Virus record (IMG/VR): IMGVR_UViG_2609459852_000016
Direction: 5' to 3' (one strand)
Length of the DNA stretch: 18,148 bases
Source: a virus
Taxonomy: Duplodnaviria; Heunggongvirae; Uroviricota; Caudoviricetes
The notes under the pieces: model-generated
What the model was told of the DNA's origin: nothing
The model's database searches: none
Seen by the model: only the letters and a program-made list of their open reading frames with translations
Translations under genes and position numbers: made by a program
In this document: positions 1-17,616 of the stretch, piece after piece
Layout: every line of letters starts with the position of its first letter
How positions within the stretch are numbered: position 1 is the first letter of the stretch

Positions 1-507
1 ATGGAAAAGTTTTCATTGGAGTTCAAAAAGGTAGTATCAGAAAAGTACCTGGAGGGAGAGTTGAGTCTGAAATCTGTAGCAAGGATGTACGGTATCAGTC
101 CCTGCACAGTAAGAAAATGGGCTTATGCCTATCGGGAACATGGGATAAGCATACTTACGGGTAAAAAAGGACGCTATTCTGCTGAGTTAAAACTCACAGT
201 AGTAAAAGAAGTCGTGGATGACTGTTTTTCTGTTCGTGAAGTAGCGGTAAAACACGGAATACCAGCCTTTGGTACTGTATGCAACTGGCTTGAAAAATAT
301 AGAAAATATGGCGAAGATGCTTTCATTCGAAAAAATAAAAAGAGTATTCCTGTACCGGATAAAAGCGCCATTTCAGCACCACCACTACCAACATTAACCA
401 AAGATGAGAGAGAAGAACTTGAACAACTCAGGGTCGAGAATGCCTACTTAAAAAAGCTGAAAGCCTTGGTTCAGCAGAAAACATGCTCAACGTTCAGGAA
501 AAAGTGA
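1..507 (+). CDS. IS3-family transposase OrfA (HTH DNA-binding, leucine-zipper-like C-terminus)
   Basis: ATG at 1, stop TGA 505..507. C-terminal LEQLRVENAYLKKLKAL heptad-like segment is typical of IS3 OrfA proteins. Confidence 0.85.
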   Translation: MEKFSLEFKKVVSEKYLEGELSLKSVARMYGISPCTVRKWAYAYREHGISILTGKKGRYSAELKLTVVKEVVDDCFSVREVAVKHGIPAFGTVCNWLEKYRKYGEDAFIRKNKKSIPVPDKSAISAPPLPTLTKDEREELEQLRVENAYLKKLKALVQQKTCSTFRKK

Positions 508-1346
508 GCATTGTGAATGAACTAAGGCAGGAATGGCCATTATCCCGATTGTTAATTGTTTCCGGGCTGCCCCGGAGTACATTTTACTATCATGTCAGAC
601 GGCTTGCTGCTCCTGACCGGTATCAGTCTGCCAGAGCGCTTGTGCTGAAAATTTATCACCAGCACAAAGGCCGCTATGGTTACAGACGCATCAGGCTGGC
701 ATGTCGTAACGAGGGGGTTTTACTTAATGGTAAAACCGTCAGAAAACTGATGAAGGAACTGGGTATTAGCAGCCTGATCCGCGTTAAAAAATACCGTTCA
801 TATAAAGGAGAACAAGGACGAATTTGCGATAATCTCCTGAAACGCAATTTTGATGCAAAACGCCCCAACGAGAAGTGGGTTACAGATGTCACTGAATTTA
901 AAGTGAATGGCAAGAAGCTGTATTTGTCGCCCATCATGGATCTTTATAATGGAGAAATAATTTCCTATAACCTCGCCACTCGCCCTCAACCTTCAATGGT
1001 GCAGACTATGCTTACGGATGCGCTGAAACAGCTGTCGAAAGATGAACACCCCATACTGCACAGCGATCAAGGTTGGCAATATCAGATGTCCCGGTGGCAA
1101 CGATGGTTAAAGGATAGCGGTATAGTCCAGAGTATGTCTCGCCGGGGAAATTGTCTTGATAATGCAGTTATAGAGAGCTTTTTTGGAACATTGAAATCAG
1201 AATGTTATTACCTCAATGAATATAAAAATGTGGAGGACTTAAAGCGAGACATCATTGATTACATAAACTATTATAATCAATTGAGGATAAAGGAAAAACT
1301 TGGCGGTCTTAGCCCGGTACAATATCGATTGAGTCAGGCTGCATAA
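483..1346 (+). CDS. IS3-family transposase OrfB (DDE catalytic domain), probably expressed as an OrfAB fusion by -1 frameshift
   Basis: ORF in the -1 frame relative to orfA. Slippery run G AAA AAG at 498..504 sits immediately before the orfA stop. DDE motif residues are present. Confidence 0.85.
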   Translation: MLNVQEKVSIVNELRQEWPLSRLLIVSGLPRSTFYYHVRRLAAPDRYQSARALVLKIYHQHKGRYGYRRIRLACRNEGVLLNGKTVRKLMKELGISSLIRVKKYRSYKGEQGRICDNLLKRNFDAKRPNEKWVTDVTEFKVNGKKLYLSPIMDLYNGEIISYNLATRPQPSMVQTMLTDALKQLSKDEHPILHSDQGWQYQMSRWQRWLKDSGIVQSMSRRGNCLDNAVIESFFGTLKSECYYLNEYKNVEDLKRDIIDYINYYNQLRIKEKLGGLSPVQYRLSQAA

Positions 1347-1373
1347 GTTGTCCAAGATCTGGGGCGCAGTTCA
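1347..1373 (+). repeat. Right terminal inverted repeat of the IS element
   Basis: Sequence gttgtccaagatctggggcgcagttca ends in CA; homology of the interrupted gene M breaks exactly here. Confidence 0.6.
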
Positions 1374-1586
1374 AAATGCGCGGACGCCACCGTGCCGTTC
1401 CAGAAAGGCTTTTAAAGATGGGTGTTCACATTTACGAACACGTATCGTCACGCTGTAAGTTGACAACTGGTTATTCAGTCCCGCCGCACGACGCTGTTCA
1501 TAACCATCGCCCAGCTTCACTGTCACCACTTTCGGCTCTGATACCACATTCATATCCGGGCGCACTTTCCAGTGAAACGTCTCCAT
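1371..1586 (-). pseudogene. M: Minor tail protein M (lambda gpM-like), truncated by the IS insertion
   Basis: Translation METFHWKVRPDMNVVSEPKVVTVKLGDGYEQRRAAGLNNQLSTYSVTIRVRK...HGGVRAF matches lambda gpM (MKTFRWKVKPGMDVASVPSVRKVRFGDGYSQRAPAGLNANLKTYSVTLSV...HGGWKSF, from memory). The reading frame ends in a TGA formed by the first three bases of the IS terminus. About 70 of roughly 109 codons remain. Confidence 0.7.
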
Positions 1587-4500
1587 TACCGATATGCTCC
1601 ACTTAACCGACCACCATCACGGGCCTGCTGTTGCATAAAGTCCGCTGCCGCTTTTTTCCCAAGGTCATAAACCACCTTCAGGGCAGCCGGACCTATCTGC
1701 CCGTTCGTGCCATCGTTATTGATCTCGATGTTGTACTGCGGGGCAAACATCGCCATACCTGAACCACCAATATCCGCCACAACCCCCAGCTTACCGTCAG
1801 CACCACGACGCAGAGGCAGAATGGCTTCAGGTCCCGCTTCACCCATCACACCCGCGCCTTTTGCAAAAGCAAAAAACGTCGGACGGTTAACCACCGTGCC
1901 ACTGTAACGACTCAAATCAGCAGACTGATAAATCCCCCCATTGGCATTCAGGGAAAGGCTGCTGAGATCAAATCCCAGTACACTGCCAATCCCTTTTATC
2001 GATTTCATCATGGTTGCCTGCGCCAGGATTTTCGCCATATCTGACAGCACAGAAGAGGTGAAGGATTTGAAATTGAGTTTGCCGGTAGTGACAAAAGTTG
2101 CCAGGCCATTTCCCATGTTGCTGAAGGCTGACGAGAACACCTGTTCTGCTGTTCCTGCCGTATTATCTGCATCCACGGTAAAATCCTGAAATGCACGCAG
2201 GACTCCGTTTTTCCAGTTACCCTGCACAACTTCAAGCTGTTGCCAGTAACGGCGATTCTCATTCAGTTGTCGGTTCAGGCTCTCCGTCAGCGCCTGCTCG
2301 GCCTTTCTGTAGTCATCCGTGTTATATGTCCCTTTCTGCTCACTATCCCGCCTCAACTGCTCCAGCTGTTGCTGGTATTTCTGGCGAAGACTCAGTTGTA
2401 CCTGATATCGCTGCCGCTGCTGATCACCCATACCCACCGTGGCGATATCCAGGTCATGTTGCTGACGCTGAGCGCGCTCTTCTTCAGCCAGTTGACTGGT
2501 CAGCTGAATTGTTTTTTTCTTCAGATCGTTGAGTGCCGTCTGTTTCTGAAGCTCCTGCTGTTTTACATCCAGCAGCGTCAGTGCCTGAATCAGTTCATCT
2601 TTACGGGCCAGCACACTCTTTTCATCTGCCGTCAGTTTTTTCCCGTCCAGATCGCTGATGCGCTGCTGCAGAGCCAGAAGCTGTTTATGCGCTTCTGTCA
2701 TCTTTTCAGTGGCAATGCCTGCTGACTGTCTTGCAGCAGCAATCTGTCCTTCCACCTGTGCCTGTTGCTGACTGTACTGCAGCAATAACCGGGTGGCCTC
2801 ATCATTACGGGTTTCGCGTGTTTTTTTCTTACCGGATGCCAGGGCTTTCTCGTAACGTTCATTTTCACGTTGTATCGCTGCATCCCTGACAGCCTGATCG
2901 GCGTACTGCATGGAATTAATACGCGCAATTTCACGCTGATGTCGTGCTGCTTCCGTTTCATTCATCCGGTTCAGTGCAGCATTTTCAGCATTACGTCGTT
3001 TCTGTTGCTCCTGATAATTCCGCTCTGCCTGCTCTTTTGCATCCTGCAAATCCTTCTGGCGTTTTTTCTCCTGAAGATCGTTAAGACGCTGCTGATCGTA
3101 TTCAACCTGAGAAGATGATGCCGTCCAGGGGAGTCTTTTCGCCCGCGACACTTTCTCCTGTAAAGCGGCAATCTGTTCATCCAGCGAGTCTTCACGACCA
3201 ATATTCATGGCCGCATCCCAGAAACGACTCCACAAATCAGACAGATACTTCAGCGTACTGCCAAGCGCATTGAGGTTATCATCAATATCCGCAGTACGCC
3301 GACCGGTTTCCTCTGCCAGTGCAGACATGGCTATCCGTGCAGCATCACTGGACCGTCCCTGATCCCCAAGGACACGTATCTGCTCAAGCTGAGTGGCAGT
3401 AAGAAAATGCAGCTCATTGTCCAGAGCCTTCGCGGCATTTACAGGATCATCCTTCAGCCGCTTAAACTGATTTATGGTATCGCTGACCGACTGGCCAACC
3501 GATCGCTCCATCTGTGCGGCAGCTCTCGCCACCATACCGATATCGTTTCCACGAAATGCACCACTCCCCACCACCTGAGCCAGCGCACCGGCTGCAGCAT
3601 GTTGCGTGATACCATTCCCGGAAATAGCACGACTGAGCGTCCACAGCTGCCCGGCAGTGACTCCGGCATAATGCCCCGTCAGCGACAACTGGCGGTTAAA
3701 TTCTTCCCCCTCCTTCTGACCGTCATACCAGGCTTTACCCAGACCATAGACGGACGCGGCAATACCGCCAATAACCCCGCCAAGCATCATGCCTTTCGGT
3801 GACATCAGAGTGTCTATCCATCCGGCACGGTTAGCCAGCGTTATCCCGGATCCCCTCAGCGCCCCTAAATTGCCGCGGGCCAGTTCACCTATCAGAACGC
3901 CTATCTCCTGGCGGGCCGCTGCACTTTTCAGACCCAGCGAATGCGTGGCTTTTCCTGCCTGCTCCATTTTGCGGATATACACTTCTGCAGCACTGCTTAC
4001 CCCCAGCTGGGCAGCCTTAGCACGAAGCAACTCAGAAGAAGAAAGATTCTGGCGGGTTGCCTGCTCTTTAAGCTGACGGATAAACGCCACTTTCTGTCGG
4101 GTAGCCTCTTCCTCAGCCTGCGTAAGAACACGGGTTTTCGCCGTAACCTCAGAAATCAGCGCCAGATAATCCTGCTGACCAATCCCGCCACTGTTTCTGG
4201 CCTGTCGGATCTGCTGCTGAATACGCTGTAATTCCTGCAGCCCCGCACTGGCCTGTTTCACACTGTCAATCTGACGATAAAACGCGGCAGCCGCTTTATC
4301 CTGAGCCTCCGCCAGAGCCATGGCCTGCGCCTGTTCCTCGCGCATTTTCTGGCTCAGTGCCTCCATACGCTGGCGGGTTTGCTCCACCTCGCGGGCCATG
4401 CGTTCATGAGCCTGTGCGCTCTTCTCCACCGTCTGCGCATGGACGGATGCGGCTGTTGCAGCCGAAGAAGCCGCCTGCATTGTCTGCCGGGCGGCCTGAG

Positions 4501-4651
4501 TCTGACGCTCCATAAAACGCTGCATACGGGCAGAAGACCGTTCTGCATCGCTGGCTGCACCATTCAGAAGGTTTTTGATACGGGGAATTTCATTTTTAAA
4601 CTCTGCCGCATCAATCCCCAAATCAATGACCAGGTTGGCTATCTGGTCCAT
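1586..4651 (-). CDS. H: Tail tape measure protein (lambda gpH-like)
   Basis: N-terminus MDQIANLVIDLGIDAAEFKNE and C-terminus EINNDGTNGQIGPAALKVVYDL resemble lambda gpH. ATG at 4651 is preceded by GGAGG; the track start at 4681 is a TTG. Stop TAA overlaps the M start (TAATG). Confidence 0.9.
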   Translation of the reverse strand: MDQIANLVIDLGIDAAEFKNEIPRIKNLLNGAASDAERSSARMQRFMERQTQAARQTMQAASSAATAASVHAQTVEKSAQAHERMAREVEQTRQRMEALSQKMREEQAQAMALAEAQDKAAAAFYRQIDSVKQASAGLQELQRIQQQIRQARNSGGIGQQDYLALISEVTAKTRVLTQAEEEATRQKVAFIRQLKEQATRQNLSSSELLRAKAAQLGVSSAAEVYIRKMEQAGKATHSLGLKSAAARQEIGVLIGELARGNLGALRGSGITLANRAGWIDTLMSPKGMMLGGVIGGIAASVYGLGKAWYDGQKEGEEFNRQLSLTGHYAGVTAGQLWTLSRAISGNGITQHAAAGALAQVVGSGAFRGNDIGMVARAAAQMERSVGQSVSDTINQFKRLKDDPVNAAKALDNELHFLTATQLEQIRVLGDQGRSSDAARIAMSALAEETGRRTADIDDNLNALGSTLKYLSDLWSRFWDAAMNIGREDSLDEQIAALQEKVSRAKRLPWTASSSQVEYDQQRLNDLQEKKRQKDLQDAKEQAERNYQEQQKRRNAENAALNRMNETEAARHQREIARINSMQYADQAVRDAAIQRENERYEKALASGKKKTRETRNDEATRLLLQYSQQQAQVEGQIAAARQSAGIATEKMTEAHKQLLALQQRISDLDGKKLTADEKSVLARKDELIQALTLLDVKQQELQKQTALNDLKKKTIQLTSQLAEEERAQRQQHDLDIATVGMGDQQRQRYQVQLSLRQKYQQQLEQLRRDSEQKGTYNTDDYRKAEQALTESLNRQLNENRRYWQQLEVVQGNWKNGVLRAFQDFTVDADNTAGTAEQVFSSAFSNMGNGLATFVTTGKLNFKSFTSSVLSDMAKILAQATMMKSIKGIGSVLGFDLSSLSLNANGGIYQSADLSRYSGTVVNRPTFFAFAKGAGVMGEAGPEAILPLRRGADGKLGVVADIGGSGMAMFAPQYNIEINNDGTNGQIGPAALKVVYDLGKKAAADFMQQQARDGGRLSGAYR

Positions 4652-5350
4652 AACGCACACCTCCGGAAATACCTTCCCCAAGATGCATCAGTTCTTCGTC
4701 CGTTCGCTCCGGTATCCCGTTCTCTTCCGGTAAAAGGCTGAAATCAGCCACCGCAGCATCACTGCTACCGGACACCATTCTCACGATCAATGCCTTCAGC
4801 GAGGCAAACTGCGCATCCATCCACACATCACTGAAGCTCTGCATCCGGAAATAATCGCCCCACTCACCAAGCTCAGTGGCCGACATTTCCGACAGCATCC
4901 GCCGCCAGTCTGCCCGCCGGAACTCCCGGGCAAGCCGCATGACAAACTGCATTTCCCGCGTCAGGACTTTTCCGGCGTCAGCACCTCATGCTCCAAATCC
5001 CCGGCATTCTCAATGACTCCCATACCGCTCAGCGACAGAACCATCTCCGCCCCCGCTCCCAGGGCATCATACGACCATGTTGTAATAACGGATGCGCAAA
5101 GCGTCTCAACATCCTGAGACTGTTCCGCATTCCACAGTGAGCGGGAAACCAGCCAGGCATTGATATCCATCCCCATCCGCAGAAAAGCAATCTGTCGTTC
5201 AGCCTCCGGCAGTTCTCCCTCTTCGGCATCAAACTTTGCCGTTCGCTGCTGAACAAACGCCAGATATTCAATTCTCTGCAGCCCGGACAGCTCACTGAGC
5301 ACCACGGACTGCTTTTCATAATTAAACGTGCCCTGTTTCAGAAACATCAT
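4623..5350 (-). CDS. Tail assembly chaperone GT fusion, made by programmed -1 frameshift near the end of G
   Basis: The T-frame ORF (4623..4952) lies in the -1 frame relative to G and overlaps its 3-prime end. Candidate slip site GGAAAAG (plus-strand 4967..4973, read on minus) is analogous to lambda GGGAAAG. The T frame is closed by a stop 13 nt upstream of the slip site. Confidence 0.6.
4961..5350 (-). CDS. G: Tail assembly chaperone G (lambda gpG-like)
   Basis: MMFLKQGTFNYEKQSVVLSELSGLQRIEYLA resembles lambda gpG (MFLKTESFEHNGVTVTLSELSALQRIEHLA). ATG at 5350 (or 5347) is preceded by GGTGGAG; the track start at 5389 is a TTG. Confidence 0.8.
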   Translation of the reverse strand: MMFLKQGTFNYEKQSVVLSELSGLQRIEYLAFVQQRTAKFDAEEGELPEAERQIAFLRMGMDINAWLVSRSLWNAEQSQDVETLCASVITTWSYDALGAGAEMVLSLSGMGVIENAGDLEHEVLTPEKS

Positions 5351-14283: not shown

Positions 14284-14300
14284 CCGCGACGCTCCCGCCC
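14284..14300 (-). other. Candidate cos site (cosN-like cohesive-end sequence)
   Basis: Minus strand reads GGGCGGGAGCGT-CGCGG, against lambda left end GGGCGGCGACCT-CGCGG (from memory), followed by a GAAATTTTA...TTCGTCAT motif similar to the lambda cosB region. Confidence 0.5.
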
Positions 14301-14666
14301 CGTGGCAGGGACCCCCACTGGGAGGACCCGACAGCCTGACAACCGTGACGAGCATCTGAAACAGAGCTTTACATAATGGCATGGGGATAATTCAGAAGGA
14401 CATCACAGCATGCCCACACAAATTAGTGTGAGTGTCCTGTTTCTTACTACGCGCAGGACTGACGAGCATGAGGGGAAAATACGCGAACCGAAATGCCTTA
14501 TCTTCAGAAATGCAGCCGGCATCCGAACTGGACGATATTGTAAATTCACCTAAATACGAGGCATTGCTGTAGTTGAATTGCAGTACTGTATTAGCCTTAC
14601 AGTGACAGAATACGATATTGACTCTGTCACTTGTGAAATGGTCAGAATGGTTAGCAGTTATGGTGA

Positions 14667-14873
14667 TCAGTCAACCACCAGGGAATAATCCTTCGTATTC
14701 TTATCGTGCTTTACTAACGCGGCCTCAATTGCCCTGAATGCTTCCAGAGATACTTGATGTTCTATACATGCAATTACAACATCCGGGTAACCCATCGAAA
14801 TGGTGCTATTAAGCATAGTTTTTACACGAACCTGCTCCTGGGAGGGGGCATCAGTGTATTGATCTTTATGCAT
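14667..14873 (-). CDS. Hypothetical small protein (68 aa), cargo gene of unknown function
   Basis: ATG at 14873 with GGAG 9 nt upstream; balanced amino-acid composition; no motif recognised. Confidence 0.5.
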
Positions 14874-15168
14874 TTTGTCGCTCCATTCGTTTGCTCTTCA
14901 CTTGCGGCTAAAAATATAACGTCAAATCACTCAGCATGAAAGAGTGAAAGTTTCAGCGCGTTTCCCTCACATAATCTGTCGTTTGTATTCTCTTCAGGCA
15001 TACCGGAAAGACTAGGTATTGTCACACAACCAATACCATCGACAATCGAGATTTATATCTATTCGGTAATGTTTAAATATAACAAAACCCCGTAAAAACG
15101 AGGTTTATGGGTAATTTGTATTGTTGAATAGCATCTGATGAGAAATTGATGCTAATACTATAAACATG

Positions 15169-15342
15169 CTAGATTAAATCAATCTTGATATCATAGCTTT
15201 CAAGACCAGTCATTTTTTCCCGTGCAGTAAACTGGATACTGGTAACTTCTTTCCCGGTCTTTTTCTTAAGCTCAATGATTTTTTTTGTTATATATTCAGA
15301 AATATCTGCTTCTGTTTTTGTTTTTAACTCTTCAATGTTCAT
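15169..15342 (-). CDS. gnsB: GnsA/GnsB-family protein
   Basis: MNIEELKTKTEADISEYITKKIIELKKKTGKEVTSIQFTAREKMTGLESYDIKIDLI closely resembles E. coli GnsB (from memory). ATG at 15342 with AGAGGA SD. Confidence 0.75.
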   Translation of the reverse strand: MNIEELKTKTEADISEYITKKIIELKKKTGKEVTSIQFTAREKMTGLESYDIKIDLI

Positions 15343-15514
15343 CATTTCCTCTTTTAGTCTGTTATGACTGTCCTGGTACACAGTAGTGTCAATTATATGG
15401 AGCAAACGTATAAAAGATAAGATGAAACATCGCAATAATCAACATACGACGGTCTAAATTTCACACAAACAGATAAAGATGATTATCATTTATTATCAAT
15501 GCATTAGAATCAAA

Positions 15515-15745
15515 TCAATTCAAGAGTCTCATTGCTGCTTCCAGAATTTCTTCTGAAGTTACATGTCGATCCGCTGCTACATAAATGACTTTATGATCTC
15601 CGGTCAGAGATGGAAACCCTGCAGCCATTACAGTGAGGTGTGTTGTTTCGCCATTTGGATATTCACGCATGATGGTGTTAACTCCGGTCATCACTGGCAC
15701 TACCATTGCTGGTTCAGAGTTAAAAAAAACTATTATTTTTTTCAT
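15515..15745 (-). CDS. Hypothetical 76-aa protein (possibly YmcE/YnfN-like by position)
   Basis: ATG at 15745; the longer track ORF starts with GTG inside the upstream terminator hairpin. It sits between the gnsB-like and cspI-like genes. Confidence 0.5.
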   Translation of the reverse strand: MKKIIVFFNSEPAMVVPVMTGVNTIMREYPNGETTHLTVMAAGFPSLTGDHKVIYVAADRHVTSEEILEAAMRLLN

Positions 15746-15789
15746 AATGTTACCGTAATATGTGAGTATCCATCGACTAGACACTAAGC

Positions 15790-15809
15790 AAAAAAGCTCC
15801 CGAAGGAGC
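15790..15809 (-). terminator. Intrinsic terminator downstream of cspI
   Basis: Minus strand: GCUCC-UUCG-GGAGC followed by UUUUUU. Confidence 0.6.
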
Positions 15810-16016
15810 CTTCATTTTCACTTTCTTAAATCTAACGACAGATGGCTAACATTTAAGTATTGTGAAATATTATCAAATGTAATCATCATTGATTTACAAA
15901 AGATACATTTTGCCCCGAAAGGATTTCTGTCAGAAACATCAAAAGATGATGTTCTATACTGAGAACCATGGCAACACGGGCATCTAAAGTGAATATGGTT
16001 TGTAATATTTTCTACC

Positions 16017-16229
16017 TCAAAGTGCCACTACATGAACAGCTGCAGGGCCTTTAGGTCCGTTCTCAATACCAAATTCGACTTCCTGATTCTCAGTTAACGT
16101 TTTGAAATCGTTGCTCTGAATAGCTGAGAAATGCACAAACACATCTTTGCTACCATCTTTCGGCGTGATGAAACCAAAACCTTTTTCAGGGTTAAACCAT
16201 TTCACTAAACCAGTCATTTTGTTAGACAT
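16017..16229 (-). CDS. cspI: CspA-family cold-shock protein (CspI-like)
   Basis: [38 protein letters not shown]...: cold-shock domain with RNP motifs, near-identical to E. coli CspI as I recall it. AAGGTAATA SD-like leader. Confidence 0.9.
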
Positions 16230-16592
16230 CATTATTACCTTTTGAAGAAGTTAGCCCTTGGGCAGAATGGTCCGAAAAAAAATATCAGAGAGAAAAACCA
16301 ACAAGGAAATCTCAAGAGGTACAAATAATAAAATTATAACAATGACTGCTTCAGATAATTTTGTAACAAACCAGAACACCATTAACGCATGATTAACCAA
16401 CCATAGCAAGGATTACTTTTGTAAAGAAAAACACACGAATGAAACAATAGCTTTATTTATTAATAAAACGTGTCATTCTGTCTAATGACCTTTTATCTTA
16501 CCCTTAAGATTTCAAGGATTTTGACTCATGGAAGAGTCCTTTTTATTTAAATTTCACATTCAGCGCTAAAAATAATCCGATTTAATATTAAT
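16230..16592 (-). promoter_or_regulatory. AT-rich promoter and long 5-prime leader region upstream of cspI
   Basis: About 360 bp without ORFs between the Rz stop and cspI start. Contains a TATAAT on the minus strand (plus-strand 16333..16338). Cold-shock genes typically have long structured leaders. Exact promoter not resolved. Confidence 0.3.

Positions 16593-17616
<1,024 letters not shown>

Follow-up and report, generated by a model that had tools for sequence, protein, structure and literature searches.

A Qin-type cspI-ynfQ-ynfN-gnsB cassette in the cargo slot between Rz and ybcW of a lambdoid prophage

INTRODUCTION

One of the closest relatives of the locus studied here is the rzpQ-cspI-ynfQ-ynfR-ynfN-gnsB segment of the defective Qin prophage of Escherichia coli K-12. 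Cold-shock induction of K-12 cspI is attributed to Wang et al. 1999, as cited in PMC7406224, and in K-12 a 21-aa YnfR-SPA fusion is strongly cold-induced (PMC6001520). In K-12 treated with AZT, cspI, ynfQ, and ynfN are co-induced 6.5-, 5.9-, and 5.8-fold with matching SspA dependence. During long-term stationary phase, cspI and ynfN shift in parallel, and loss of cspI lowers competitive survival.

K-12 carries a second relative, the chromosomal cspH / cspG-ymcF-ymcE-gnsA locus, in which gnsA encodes a homolog of GnsB. The poor cold growth of a relA fadR mutant is relieved by gnsA and gnsB carried on plasmids, a relA spoT fadR strain regains its 16:1 and 18:1 fatty acids with gnsA, and overexpressed gnsA affects unsaturated fatty acids most when the temperature is low. 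GnsA and YmcE have also been listed as a toxin-antitoxin pair; the only published claim is that of Wei et al. 2015, as cited in PMC8484670, and the database label "addiction module toxin" on gnsB rests on it.

In phage lambda, whose right end reads Rz - bor - lambdap78 - lambdap79 - cos, the DNA between Rz and the last gene before cos is a cargo slot. Phage Tritos of E. coli LF82 carries cspI there, and cspI and a neighboring gene of Tritos have been experimentally scored as morons. Here, we analyzed an 18,148-nt stretch of Caudoviricetes DNA (IMG/VR record IMGVR_UViG_2609459852_000016; the window), in which an AT-rich cargo island at 14667-16229, with a cold-shock gene and a possible toxin-antitoxin pair, had been predicted. 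The cassette is already known: it is the intact-phage version of cspI-ynfQ-ynfR-ynfN-gnsB of K-12 Qin. The locus is therefore an ordinary one, a well-known Qin/mEp460-type cassette best read as lysogen-expressed cold-adaptation genes and not as a toxin-antitoxin pair. Its discovery value is small, as all genes are in RefSeq, the locus is textbook K-12 Qin, and related phages have been sequenced and profiled.

RESULTS AND DISCUSSION

Extent and composition of the island

The gene identities, RNA element, hairpins, boundaries, and conservation described below were established in this analysis (Table 1). cspI, ynfN, gnsB, and the 68-aa open reading frame (ORF) all lie on the minus strand, which is the late-gene strand, and the island genes stand directly downstream of holin, endolysin, and Rz and ahead of cos. 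The cos site had been assumed to lie nearby and can be placed at about 14300, where the mEp460_4F5 record starts. The stretch GGGGCGGGAGCGTCGCGG at 14285..14305 is one that we take to resemble the left end of lambda.

Table 1. Features of the island and its surroundings (coordinates are those of the window)
Feature	Coordinates	Strand	Basis
Putative cspI promoter	16381..16409	-	-35 TTGCTA at 16409..16404, 17-nt spacer, -10 GTTAAT at 16386..16381; read from sequence
cspA-type thermoregulator, cspI 5'-UTR and coding region	15971..16387	-	Rfam RF01766, 110.1 bits, gathering score 78, E = 8e-28, full model 1-428
cspI, cold-shock protein, 70 aa	16017..16229	-	Pfam CSD; RefSeq annotation cspI
ynfQ/ymcF-type small protein, 62 aa, CxxC...CxxC zinc ribbon	15818..16006	-	ATT start; RefSeq "cold shock small protein YmcF"
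Truncated ynfR small ORF, 12 codons	15777..15815	-	RefSeq pseudogene, "too short"; overlaps terminator hairpin
Intrinsic terminator 3' of ynfQ	15790..15812	-	AAGGCUCC-UUCG-GGAGCUUU, then U run; -14.8 kcal/mol, z = -2.6
ynfN, full-length, 76 aa	15515..15745	-	RefSeq name YnfN; phrog_3425 match 76/76
Promoter-like block upstream of gnsB	15410..15442	-	TTGATTATTGCGATGTTTCATCTTATCTTTTATAC; one reading is -35 TTGATT, 17 nt, -10 TATCTT
gnsB, 57 aa, GnsA/GnsB family	15169..15342	-	PF08178 at 2.1e-33, residues 1-54 of 54
Intrinsic terminator closing the cargo block	15085..15106	-	Terminator scan; -11 kcal/mol, z = -2.4
Lambda-backbone block with the 68-aa ybcW/lambdap79 homolog and its upstream region	14522..15039	-	81% nucleotide identity to lambda 47579..48090
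68-aa ybcW/lambdap79 homolog	14873..14667	-	phrog_657 match 68/68
Probable cos region	14285..14305	-	Linear phage mEp460_4F5 record begins at window 14305, beside lambda-like GGGCGGGAGCGTCGCGG

The island proper runs from about 16592 to 15040. Its upstream end had been put at 16229, but the island reaches further: the cspA-type 5'-UTR element extends to 16387, and the AT-rich spacer upstream of cspI continues to the Rz-type gene rzpQ, whose end is at 16593. At the other edge, sequence comparison showed that homology to K-12 Qin stops at 15032 and homology to lambda picks up at 15039. The 68-aa protein, initially regarded as an orphan within the cargo, accordingly falls outside it. It is YbcW/lambdap79 (the name YbcW is used in some records), the product of the last lambda gene, with which it shares 79% identity, strand, and position, and it is encoded on lambda-backbone DNA. 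Its structural model, a three-helix bundle with a pLDDT of 77, gave generic fold matches only. The predicted gene content thus held for cspI, the 76-aa ORF, and gnsB; ynfQ and the truncated ynfR had been overlooked, and the 68-aa gene belongs to the lambda backbone.

The island is markedly more AT-rich than the flanking structural genes, as had been predicted: GC content was 0.370 for 14667-16229 and fell to 0.341 in the true cargo block (15040-16592), against 0.504-0.569 in 220 size-matched windows of the structural genes. The slot lies in a lambdoid (mEp460/Qin-type) prophage, flanked by the spanin gene on one side and the ybcW-cos backbone on the other; in lambda it holds bor and lambdap78, which lie on the opposite strand where the present phage has cspI-ynfQ-ynfN-gnsB. 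The island also has the structure of a moron: one edge falls where rzpQ ends (16593) and the other near 15040, GC content is 0.34 versus 0.54, and the block contains two terminators, a promoter-like element, and a leader of the thermosensor type. Mobile cargo with a cold-shock gene between the lysis cassette and cos, the core of the original prediction, is therefore supported.

cspI and its downstream genes

The cold-shock gene is cspI itself, as its predicted resemblance had suggested: the product is 100% identical to K-12 CspI and 79% identical to CspG (BLASTP), and consists of a single cold-shock domain (PF00313 at 1.7e-31, residues 6-70). Upstream, the putative promoter resembles that of cspA, and the transcript would start near 16374, about 145 nt before the cspI ATG. 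A permissive Rfam scan returned nothing credible besides the cspA element.

CspI also shows weak similarity to the effector model of retron Se72 (2e-13, short of the cut-off) and to CSD_V of PADLOC (3e-15), and defense genes are frequent in prophage cargo slots, which could point to an anti-phage defense or superinfection-exclusion module built on a cold-shock-domain effector. We consider this extremely unlikely. CspI is identical to a characterized cold-shock protein, the CspG, CspA, and CspE models score far higher, the other island proteins are without a PADLOC match, and neither a retron reverse transcriptase nor a retron noncoding RNA is present. The defense-system reading was rejected on account of the identity of CspI and the absence of partner genes.

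ynfQ starts 10 nt past the cspI stop codon, which its GAGGT Shine-Dalgarno sequence overlaps. Its product is 94% identical to K-12 YnfQ and 69% identical to YmcF, and the gene was kept in every Citrobacter locus examined. ynfR is cut to 12 codons here, and an ATG was absent at its position in the Citrobacter loci. The GC-rich hairpin after ynfQ was retained in 13 of 13 related loci with compensatory stem changes, and the U run that follows it in 12 of 13, having decayed to AUAUUU in locus L015. This terminator nevertheless appears to be leaky: in the published RNA-seq of an LF82 lysogen, which carries a 93%-identical island, ynfN RNA amounted to 3-14% of cspI RNA.

The 76-aa protein had been proposed to be a YmcE/YnfN homolog. 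The YnfN part of the proposal stood, with residues 26-76 being 94% identical to K-12 YnfN over all 51 of its residues; the YmcE part did not, as permissive BLASTP (E up to 10, word size 2) gave no alignment with YmcE, and the two do not form a single family. What the phage encodes is YnfN at its full length of 76 aa, and the 51-aa form of K-12 is a frameshift remnant: one base is missing from a T8 run in K-12 ynfN, and the remnant is annotated beside an intact gnsB. YnfN is conserved end to end in Citrobacter, and pN/pS is about 0.2 for codons 1-25 and 26-76 alike. Both the 76-aa and the 68-aa proteins matched PHROGs families of unknown function only, with nothing in Pfam, NCBIfam, or PADLOC and no matches in a sequence search of solved structures. 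The AlphaFold2 model of YnfN has five beta-strands and a C-terminal helix (pLDDT 89); this confidently predicted fold appears to match nothing solved, and none of the known antitoxin folds resembles it.

gnsB and its upstream spacer

The prediction of a GnsB-like 57-aa protein was borne out by the PF08178 match and by 93% identity to K-12 GnsB (63% to GnsA), and the protein also matches the solved GnsA structures 4XO1 and 4XO2 (4XO2 at 7.9e-20). The GnsB lipid phenotypes described to date are overexpression phenotypes.

The gap between ynfN and gnsB measures 172 nt here and 205-335 nt in Citrobacter. Its most conserved stretch across Escherichia and Citrobacter is the promoter-like block, which also occurs upstream of K-12 gnsA, within the ymcE ORF. 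The block fits 8 of 12 consensus positions, which is below the threshold of the consensus promoter scan; that scan gave a site count no higher than in shuffled sequence and missed this conserved block. Its conservation, together with the independent expression of gnsB, suggests that it drives gnsB as a promoter.

Expression in lysogens

Expression was taken from published RNA-seq of the LF82(Tritos) lysogen, which we re-read by coordinates, identifying genes by length and order; the other expression data come from K-12. The Tritos island is 93% identical to the present one, with ybcV (DUF1398) inserted between gnsB and ybcW. In this lysogen, log2 fpkm values were 9.0-12.7 for cspI, 4.8-8.4 for ynfN, and 7.6-12.3 for gnsB, whereas the lysis and terminase genes reached about 2.3-4.5, so that cspI and gnsB stood 5-9 log2 units higher. 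The lysogen transcription expected of a moron was thus found on the 93%-identical Tritos island, cspI and gnsB being on and the neighboring phage genes silent. ynfN RNA tracked cspI, while gnsB varied independently and exceeded ynfN RNA 2.6- to 72-fold in 10 of 10 samples. Lysogen expression and the uncoupling of gnsB from ynfN are therefore drawn from others' data on that related island.

Taken together, we regard it as probable that the island is a cold-responsive moron cassette, i.e., host-type cargo with its own promoters and terminators, organized in two transcription units and of benefit to the host in the lysogen. The first unit would comprise cspI-ynfQ-(ynfR')-ynfN, read from a cspA-like promoter through a cspA-type thermosensor leader, with ynfQ presumably translated from its ATT start immediately 3' of cspI and the hairpin terminator after ynfQ letting perhaps a few percent of transcripts through into ynfN. 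The second would be gnsB, preceded by its own promoter-like block and a strong Shine-Dalgarno sequence and closed by a separate terminator. In the lysogen, the cassette genes would be on while the phage late genes stay silent; CspI would act as an RNA chaperone, and GnsB would make membrane lipids more unsaturated, an effect that should count most at low temperature. Given the chaperone, the lipid shift, and the lysogen expression, the host, and hence the prophage, may benefit when cold or otherwise stressed. Promoter positions, the mode of read-through, and the gain in fitness are likewise put forward as what these features suggest. If correct, this would be a tidy case of a prophage whose cargo of host stress-response genes is regulated in the manner of the host.

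In lytic growth, Q-antiterminated late transcription would run through the cassette as well. An alternative is that the cassette is mainly lytic and transcribed from the late promoter under Q antitermination; CspI would then assist antitermination or the translation of late mRNA, and GnsB would remodel lipids for holin/spanin function or for infection at low temperature. All genes do lie on the late-gene strand, directly after holin, endolysin, and Rz and before cos, this position is conserved in Escherichia and Citrobacter phages, and phage cold-shock proteins form a PHROG family of their own (phrog_729). A mainly lytic role nonetheless seems unlikely to us: in the lysogen its genes are transcribed at high levels with the lysis genes next to them silent, and the block also persists outside prophages and in the defective Qin prophage of K-12. 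The cassette also appears dispensable for the lytic cycle, because lambda and many close relatives have other cargo in the slot.

Relatives and distribution

Among the matches listed, the island was 100% identical in E. coli genomes, and 343 records matched at at least 99%; in E. coli the RefSeq labels read cspI / ymcF(ynfQ) / ynfN / gnsB. Phage records with the block were mEp460_ev081, 2H10, HannyBb, PhiR63_1, Tritos, and PhiR42_1. In mEp460_ev081, 2H10, and HannyBb, which are viable phages, the island is identical to the present one. The mEp460 type strain shares the head and tail genes of the present phage and has no match to its island. The genome search for the GnsB locus, like the two protein searches, covered Escherichia, Shigella, and Citrobacter only, and within this range YnfN was seen in Escherichia and Citrobacter. 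Citrobacter prophages carry the same block between Rz and terS, and other Citrobacter genomes have it in non-prophage contexts.

K-12 Qin shares the gene set, order, strand, and post-lysis position, with 91% nucleotide identity over 16700..15032. The differences are that ynfN is intact (76 aa) and ynfR truncated in the present phage, whereas ynfN is frameshifted in K-12, and that the genes downstream are ybcW-cos-terminase here and ydfO/ynfO with a decayed nohA in K-12. The island had also been said to mirror the cspG/cspH-ymcE-gnsA locus. This is true of its two ends, cspG plus ymcF (74% nucleotide identity) and gnsA (73%), as well as of the terminator that follows ymcF and the promoter-like block ahead of gnsA. 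It does not extend to the middle segment, where the island has ynfN and the K-12 locus ymcE: the cspG locus is without ynfN, its ymcF and gnsA are 195 nt apart, and the DNA between ynfQ/ymcF and gnsA/B could not be aligned between the two.

Is gnsB part of a toxin-antitoxin module?

A possible GnsA/YmcE-type toxin-antitoxin module had been put forward as a hypothesis in the original prediction. In the phage, this would be a prophage-stabilizing addiction module with GnsB as the toxin and the 76-aa YnfN as the antitoxin, YnfN having replaced YmcE without homology. Several observations are in line with it. Pfam (PF08178) and NCBI apply the name toxin to the GnsA/GnsB family, Wei et al. 2015 is the source for listing GnsA-YmcE as a pair, and YnfN lies immediately upstream of GnsB, in the position of YmcE. 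As expected of a functional pair, ynfN and gnsB also show near-perfect co-occurrence, being found in 2141 and 2139, respectively, of 5426 E. coli genomes, and together in 9 of 11 Citrobacter loci.

We nevertheless consider such a module very unlikely, and the spacer, the uncoupled RNA, and the lack of an antitoxin-like fold leave the prediction unsupported. (i) The genes are separated by a spacer that contains the conserved promoter-like block, whereas the genes of type II modules overlap or lie a few bases apart. (ii) In a healthy lysogen, ynfN RNA follows cspI, with gnsB RNA many-fold above it, and in K-12 data too ynfN goes with cspI and gnsB changes on its own. (iii) Despite the linkage just noted, the partner may be exchangeable or dispensable: GnsA/B occurs with a YmcE-like sequence in K-12 and locus L015 and with neither partner in locus L017, YnfN occurs without GnsB in phage PHB10, and K-12 has an intact gnsB beside the frameshifted ynfN. 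(iv) In several studies, gnsA and gnsB expressed from plasmids in multicopy served as suppressors that restore growth. (v) YnfN has no similarity to YmcE, and its model suggests no antitoxin-like fold. The GnsA-YmcE claim does not extend to the phage locus by homology.

A related idea casts YnfN as an antidote or modulator of GnsB that has no kinship with YmcE and is produced through leaky read-through of the cold-shock operon. In a milder variant, the ynfQ-ynfN terminator would act as a Csp-responsive antitermination switch, raising ynfN in the cold. We give this little credence too; if the partnership were real, it would be a new kind of addiction-like pair. The K-12 ymcE ORF, unrelated to YnfN, runs across the terminator of ymcF and both the promoter block and the Shine-Dalgarno sequence of gnsA, a composition that argues against the pair and makes the ORF look like an overprint of regulatory DNA.

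Layout of the island

The phage genes of this E. coli lambdoid prophage all lie on the minus strand and run, from 18148 to 13620, through a P21-type holin, a DUF1327 protein (YdfR), lysozyme, a DUF2514 Rz-type protein, the island, a DUF1441 small terminase and the large terminase, with cos near 14300. The original prediction of an AT-rich cargo island at 14667-16229 holds in its main point, as the block between the Rz-type gene and the lambda-type backbone has a GC content of 0.34 (15040-16592) versus 0.504-0.569 in 220 same-sized windows of structural genes. The four small ORFs that had been listed are present by ORF listing and homology; CspI is 100% identical to K-12 CspI, and the 57-aa GnsB-like protein is 93% identical to GnsB with a full-length match to PF08178. 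The inventory was incomplete in that it missed ynfQ, whose ATT start escapes an ORF lister accepting ATG, GTG and TTG only. The limits also shift: the cargo block proper spans ~16592 to ~15040, because the cspI regulatory region reaches past 16229 (Rfam match to 16387) and the 68-aa gene at the other end, taken before as an orphan and as cargo, belongs to the lambda-type backbone. This gene is a homologue of lambdap79, called YbcW in some records, and window 15039..14522 aligns with lambda 47579..48090 at 81% identity, which places the end of the cargo at ~15040 on nucleotide comparison. In lambda, bor and lambdap78 stand where the island stands here. Overall, the earlier observation was largely right but incomplete, and the island genes and their arrangement are already annotated and described.

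The K-12 Qin prophage has the same arrangement, rzpQ-cspI-ynfQ-ynfR-ynfN-gnsB, with 91% nucleotide identity over window 16700..15032. By megablast, 14300-16700 has 100%-identical copies in the E. coli chromosomes listed, 343 records match at 99% identity or more, and RefSeq labels on matching copies read cspI, ymcF/ynfQ, a "too short" pseudo-CDS, ynfN, gnsB and hypothetical protein. An ORF in another frame inside the Rz-type gene rzpQ carries a lipoprotein-like signal and occupies the position of K-12 rzoQ, an Rz1-type outer-membrane spanin. At the other end of the window, an IS3-family element (1..1374) adjoins the tape-measure gene at its 3' end, and matches to related phages end at 1374; the tail genes may be disrupted here, and the prophage may be defective.

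Features of the island and its surroundings in window coordinates
Feature	Position	Strand	Remarks
IS3 orfA	1..507	+	HTH_Tnp_1
IS3 orfB	483..1346	+	rve
Tape-measure gene	1586..4681	-	
ybcW/lambdap79 homologue	14667..14873	-	68 aa; 79% identical to lambdap79, lambda's last gene before cos
gnsB terminator	15106..15085	-	
Promoter-like block upstream of gnsB	15442..15410	-	TTGATTATTGA...TTATA; conserved
ynfN	15515..15745	-	76 aa; compared with 3955..4185 of K-12 Qin (L003)
ynfR sORF	15777..15815	-	truncated; overlies terminator hairpin; 4189..4254 in K-12 Qin (L003)
ynfQ	16006..15818	-	62 aa; CxxC...CxxC; ATT start
cspI regulatory element	16387..15971	-	Rfam cspA thermoregulator; 110 bits (gathering score 78)
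Putative cspA-like cspI promoter	16409..16381	-	read from sequence
rzoQ-position ORF	16643..16939	-	inside rzpQ

Proposed expression units

The island is most likely a moron cassette of two host-type transcription units. In the first, a cspA-like promoter and thermosensor leader would drive cspI together with translationally coupled ynfQ, and a leaky terminator would pass a few percent of transcripts on to ynfN. In the second, gnsB would be expressed from its own promoter up to its own terminator, and Q-dependent late transcription would presumably cross the whole cassette during lytic growth.

The ynfQ start lies 10 nt past the cspI stop, which its GAGGT Shine-Dalgarno overlaps, and the ATT codon and its context are kept in K-12 ymcF/ynfQ and in Citrobacter. 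IF3 discriminates against AUU starts; therefore, translation of ynfQ could be tied through this codon to cold-shock shifts in initiation factors. Directly 3' of ymcF/ynfQ stands a GC-rich hairpin with a U run after it. All 13 of the 13 loci retain the hairpin, with compensatory substitutions in its stem; one of them (L015, Citrobacter sp. NCU1) has a degenerate U run. The ynfR codons KAPSGAF form the stem-loop of this hairpin. In the window ynfR is cut to 12 codons, and in Citrobacter it lacks an ATG; what is conserved here is the hairpin and not the peptide. A ribosome on ynfR, or one that ends translation of ynfQ 2 nt upstream, could hinder termination. YnfR-SPA is cold-induced in K-12 (PMC6001520); therefore, cold-induced expression extends to this point.

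The 76-aa protein

The 76-aa protein, which had been suggested to be a YmcE/YnfN homologue, is a genuine full-length YnfN and shows no sequence similarity to YmcE. Its C-terminal 51 residues are 94% identical to K-12 YnfN, whose 51-aa annotation begins at internal Met26 because one T lost from a T8 run frameshifts codon 8 in MG1655. The window, phage Tritos and Citrobacter (66-77% identity) all have the 76-aa frame intact, and pN/pS is ~0.2 in codons 1-25 and 26-76 alike. The AlphaFold2 model (pLDDT 89, 14-sequence alignment) has five strands and a helix, with the N-terminal residues forming the first strands. The family is narrow, with 52 clusters whose named sources are all Escherichia or Citrobacter, and YnfN gave no match in Pfam, NCBIfam and PADLOC profile searches or in fold searches of solved and viral structures.

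Is ynfN-gnsB a toxin-antitoxin pair?

GnsB and the 76-aa protein had been proposed to form a toxin-antitoxin module, and the labels "GnsAB_toxin" (Pfam) and "addiction module toxin" (NCBI) point the same way; these labels go back to Wei et al. 2015, a study of GnsA-YmcE. YnfN lies upstream of GnsB, as YmcE does of GnsA; the two genes co-occur almost perfectly in E. coli (ynfN in 2141 and gnsB in 2139 of 5426 genomes) and lie next to each other in 9 of 11 Citrobacter loci. However, en-bloc inheritance of the 1.5-kb cassette accounts for position, co-occurrence and adjacency equally well, and the module reading is not supported by spacing, expression or predicted fold. A gap of 172 nt separates the genes in the window (205-335 nt in Citrobacter); it contains the conserved promoter-like block, which sits ~70-200 nt 5' of gnsA/B in the compared loci.

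Published RNA-seq of E. coli LF82 lysogenic for Tritos, whose island is 93% identical to the window's (PMC9928086), shows that their RNAs are uncoupled. Genes were matched to the Tritos record (L023) by their coordinates and lengths. On this assignment, cspI (LF82_0377, 213 nt) ranged over log2 fpkm 9.0-12.7 in ten samples and ynfN (LF82_3578, 156 nt) over 4.8-8.4, always 2.8-4.9 log2 units below cspI (3-14%). In contrast, gnsB (LF82_0907, 174 nt; 7.6-12.3) varied independently of cspI at 2.6-72 times ynfN, and the lysis and terminase genes were silent (2.3-4.5). Product names in the Tritos sheet of the S1 Table of that study are one row out against coordinates because the LF82 annotation lacks ynfQ; by position and length, the moron "YnfN, 27-fold" of its Table 1 is gnsB, and the true ynfN is labelled "cold-shock protein". 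In K-12 treated with AZT, cspI, ynfQ and ynfN rose 6.5-, 5.9- and 5.8-fold with matching SspA dependence and gnsB was not listed, and cspI and ynfN change together in long-term stationary phase (PMC7406224).

The two genes are also not always paired. A YmcE-like sequence takes the place of YnfN beside K-12 gnsA and in Citrobacter sp. NCU1, Citrobacter locus L017 has neither, and K-12 retains an intact gnsB beside its frameshifted ynfN. Phage PHB10 carries a 60%-identical YnfN with csp genes and no GnsB, which ties YnfN to csp genes and not to GnsB. The predicted YnfN fold does not resemble antitoxins in the fold search, and gnsA and gnsB expressed from plasmids restore growth in a number of genetic backgrounds. 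The PHB10 region (1728..3740 of locus L020, from MK524177.1), a second csp cassette type beside umuDC and integrase, holds a divergent cspH-like gene, a cspG-like gene and an unrelated 112-aa protein, and lacks ynfQ.

The proposed mirroring of the chromosomal cspG-ymcF-ymcE-gnsA locus stands for cspG plus ymcF and for gnsA, where DNA homology is found, and fails for ynfN, which the K-12 locus lacks entirely; both kinds of locus share the hairpin past ymcF/ynfQ and the promoter-like block. The K-12 ymcE ORF (L002, 2348..2578) crosses the terminator of ymcF (hairpin plus U run), whose translation is residues IRLPRGAFF, and then spans the gnsA promoter-like block, Shine-Dalgarno and start codon, its C-terminal RPEEVNSEY being the translated AGAGG-to-GTG region. 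Citrobacter sp. NCU1 does not keep the ORF whole, only a 25-codon fragment staying open. Therefore, YmcE is doubtful as a conserved antitoxin gene, and ymcE more likely overprints regulatory DNA than encodes a conserved partner.

Possible role and spread of the cassette

A two-unit cold and stress adaptation package of benefit to the lysogen is plausible, because CspI is an RNA chaperone and unsaturated fatty acids increase, especially in the cold, when gnsA or gnsB is overexpressed. The block is found between Rz and terS in prophages and also in non-prophage contexts in Citrobacter and so has passed between chromosomal and phage DNA.

In lambda-like phages, the final gene ahead of cos may itself be a moron. 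In the LF82 lysogen, the ybcW homologue (LF82_2580, 207 nt) is expressed and strongly induced in DMEM and macrophages (log2 fpkm ~5 to ~10; reported log2 fold change 4.9; PMC9928086). The YbcW model is a three-helix bundle. The YbcW/lambdap79 protein search returned hundreds of near-identical clusters from ENA contigs of ~3.5 kb, with phage records OR974317-OR974325 named alongside; these seem to be reads or assemblies with errors that stem from a lambda right-end fragment of 3.3-3.6 kb (probably control DNA) rather than natural diversity. Mis-binning or contamination also seems to explain JAGZPX010000007.1, a contig bearing a Veillonella parvula MAG label that contains part of a Qin-type E. 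coli prophage, and "Campylobacter phage CJLB-4" (MW057783.1), whose identity to the query is exactly that of lambda (79.4%).
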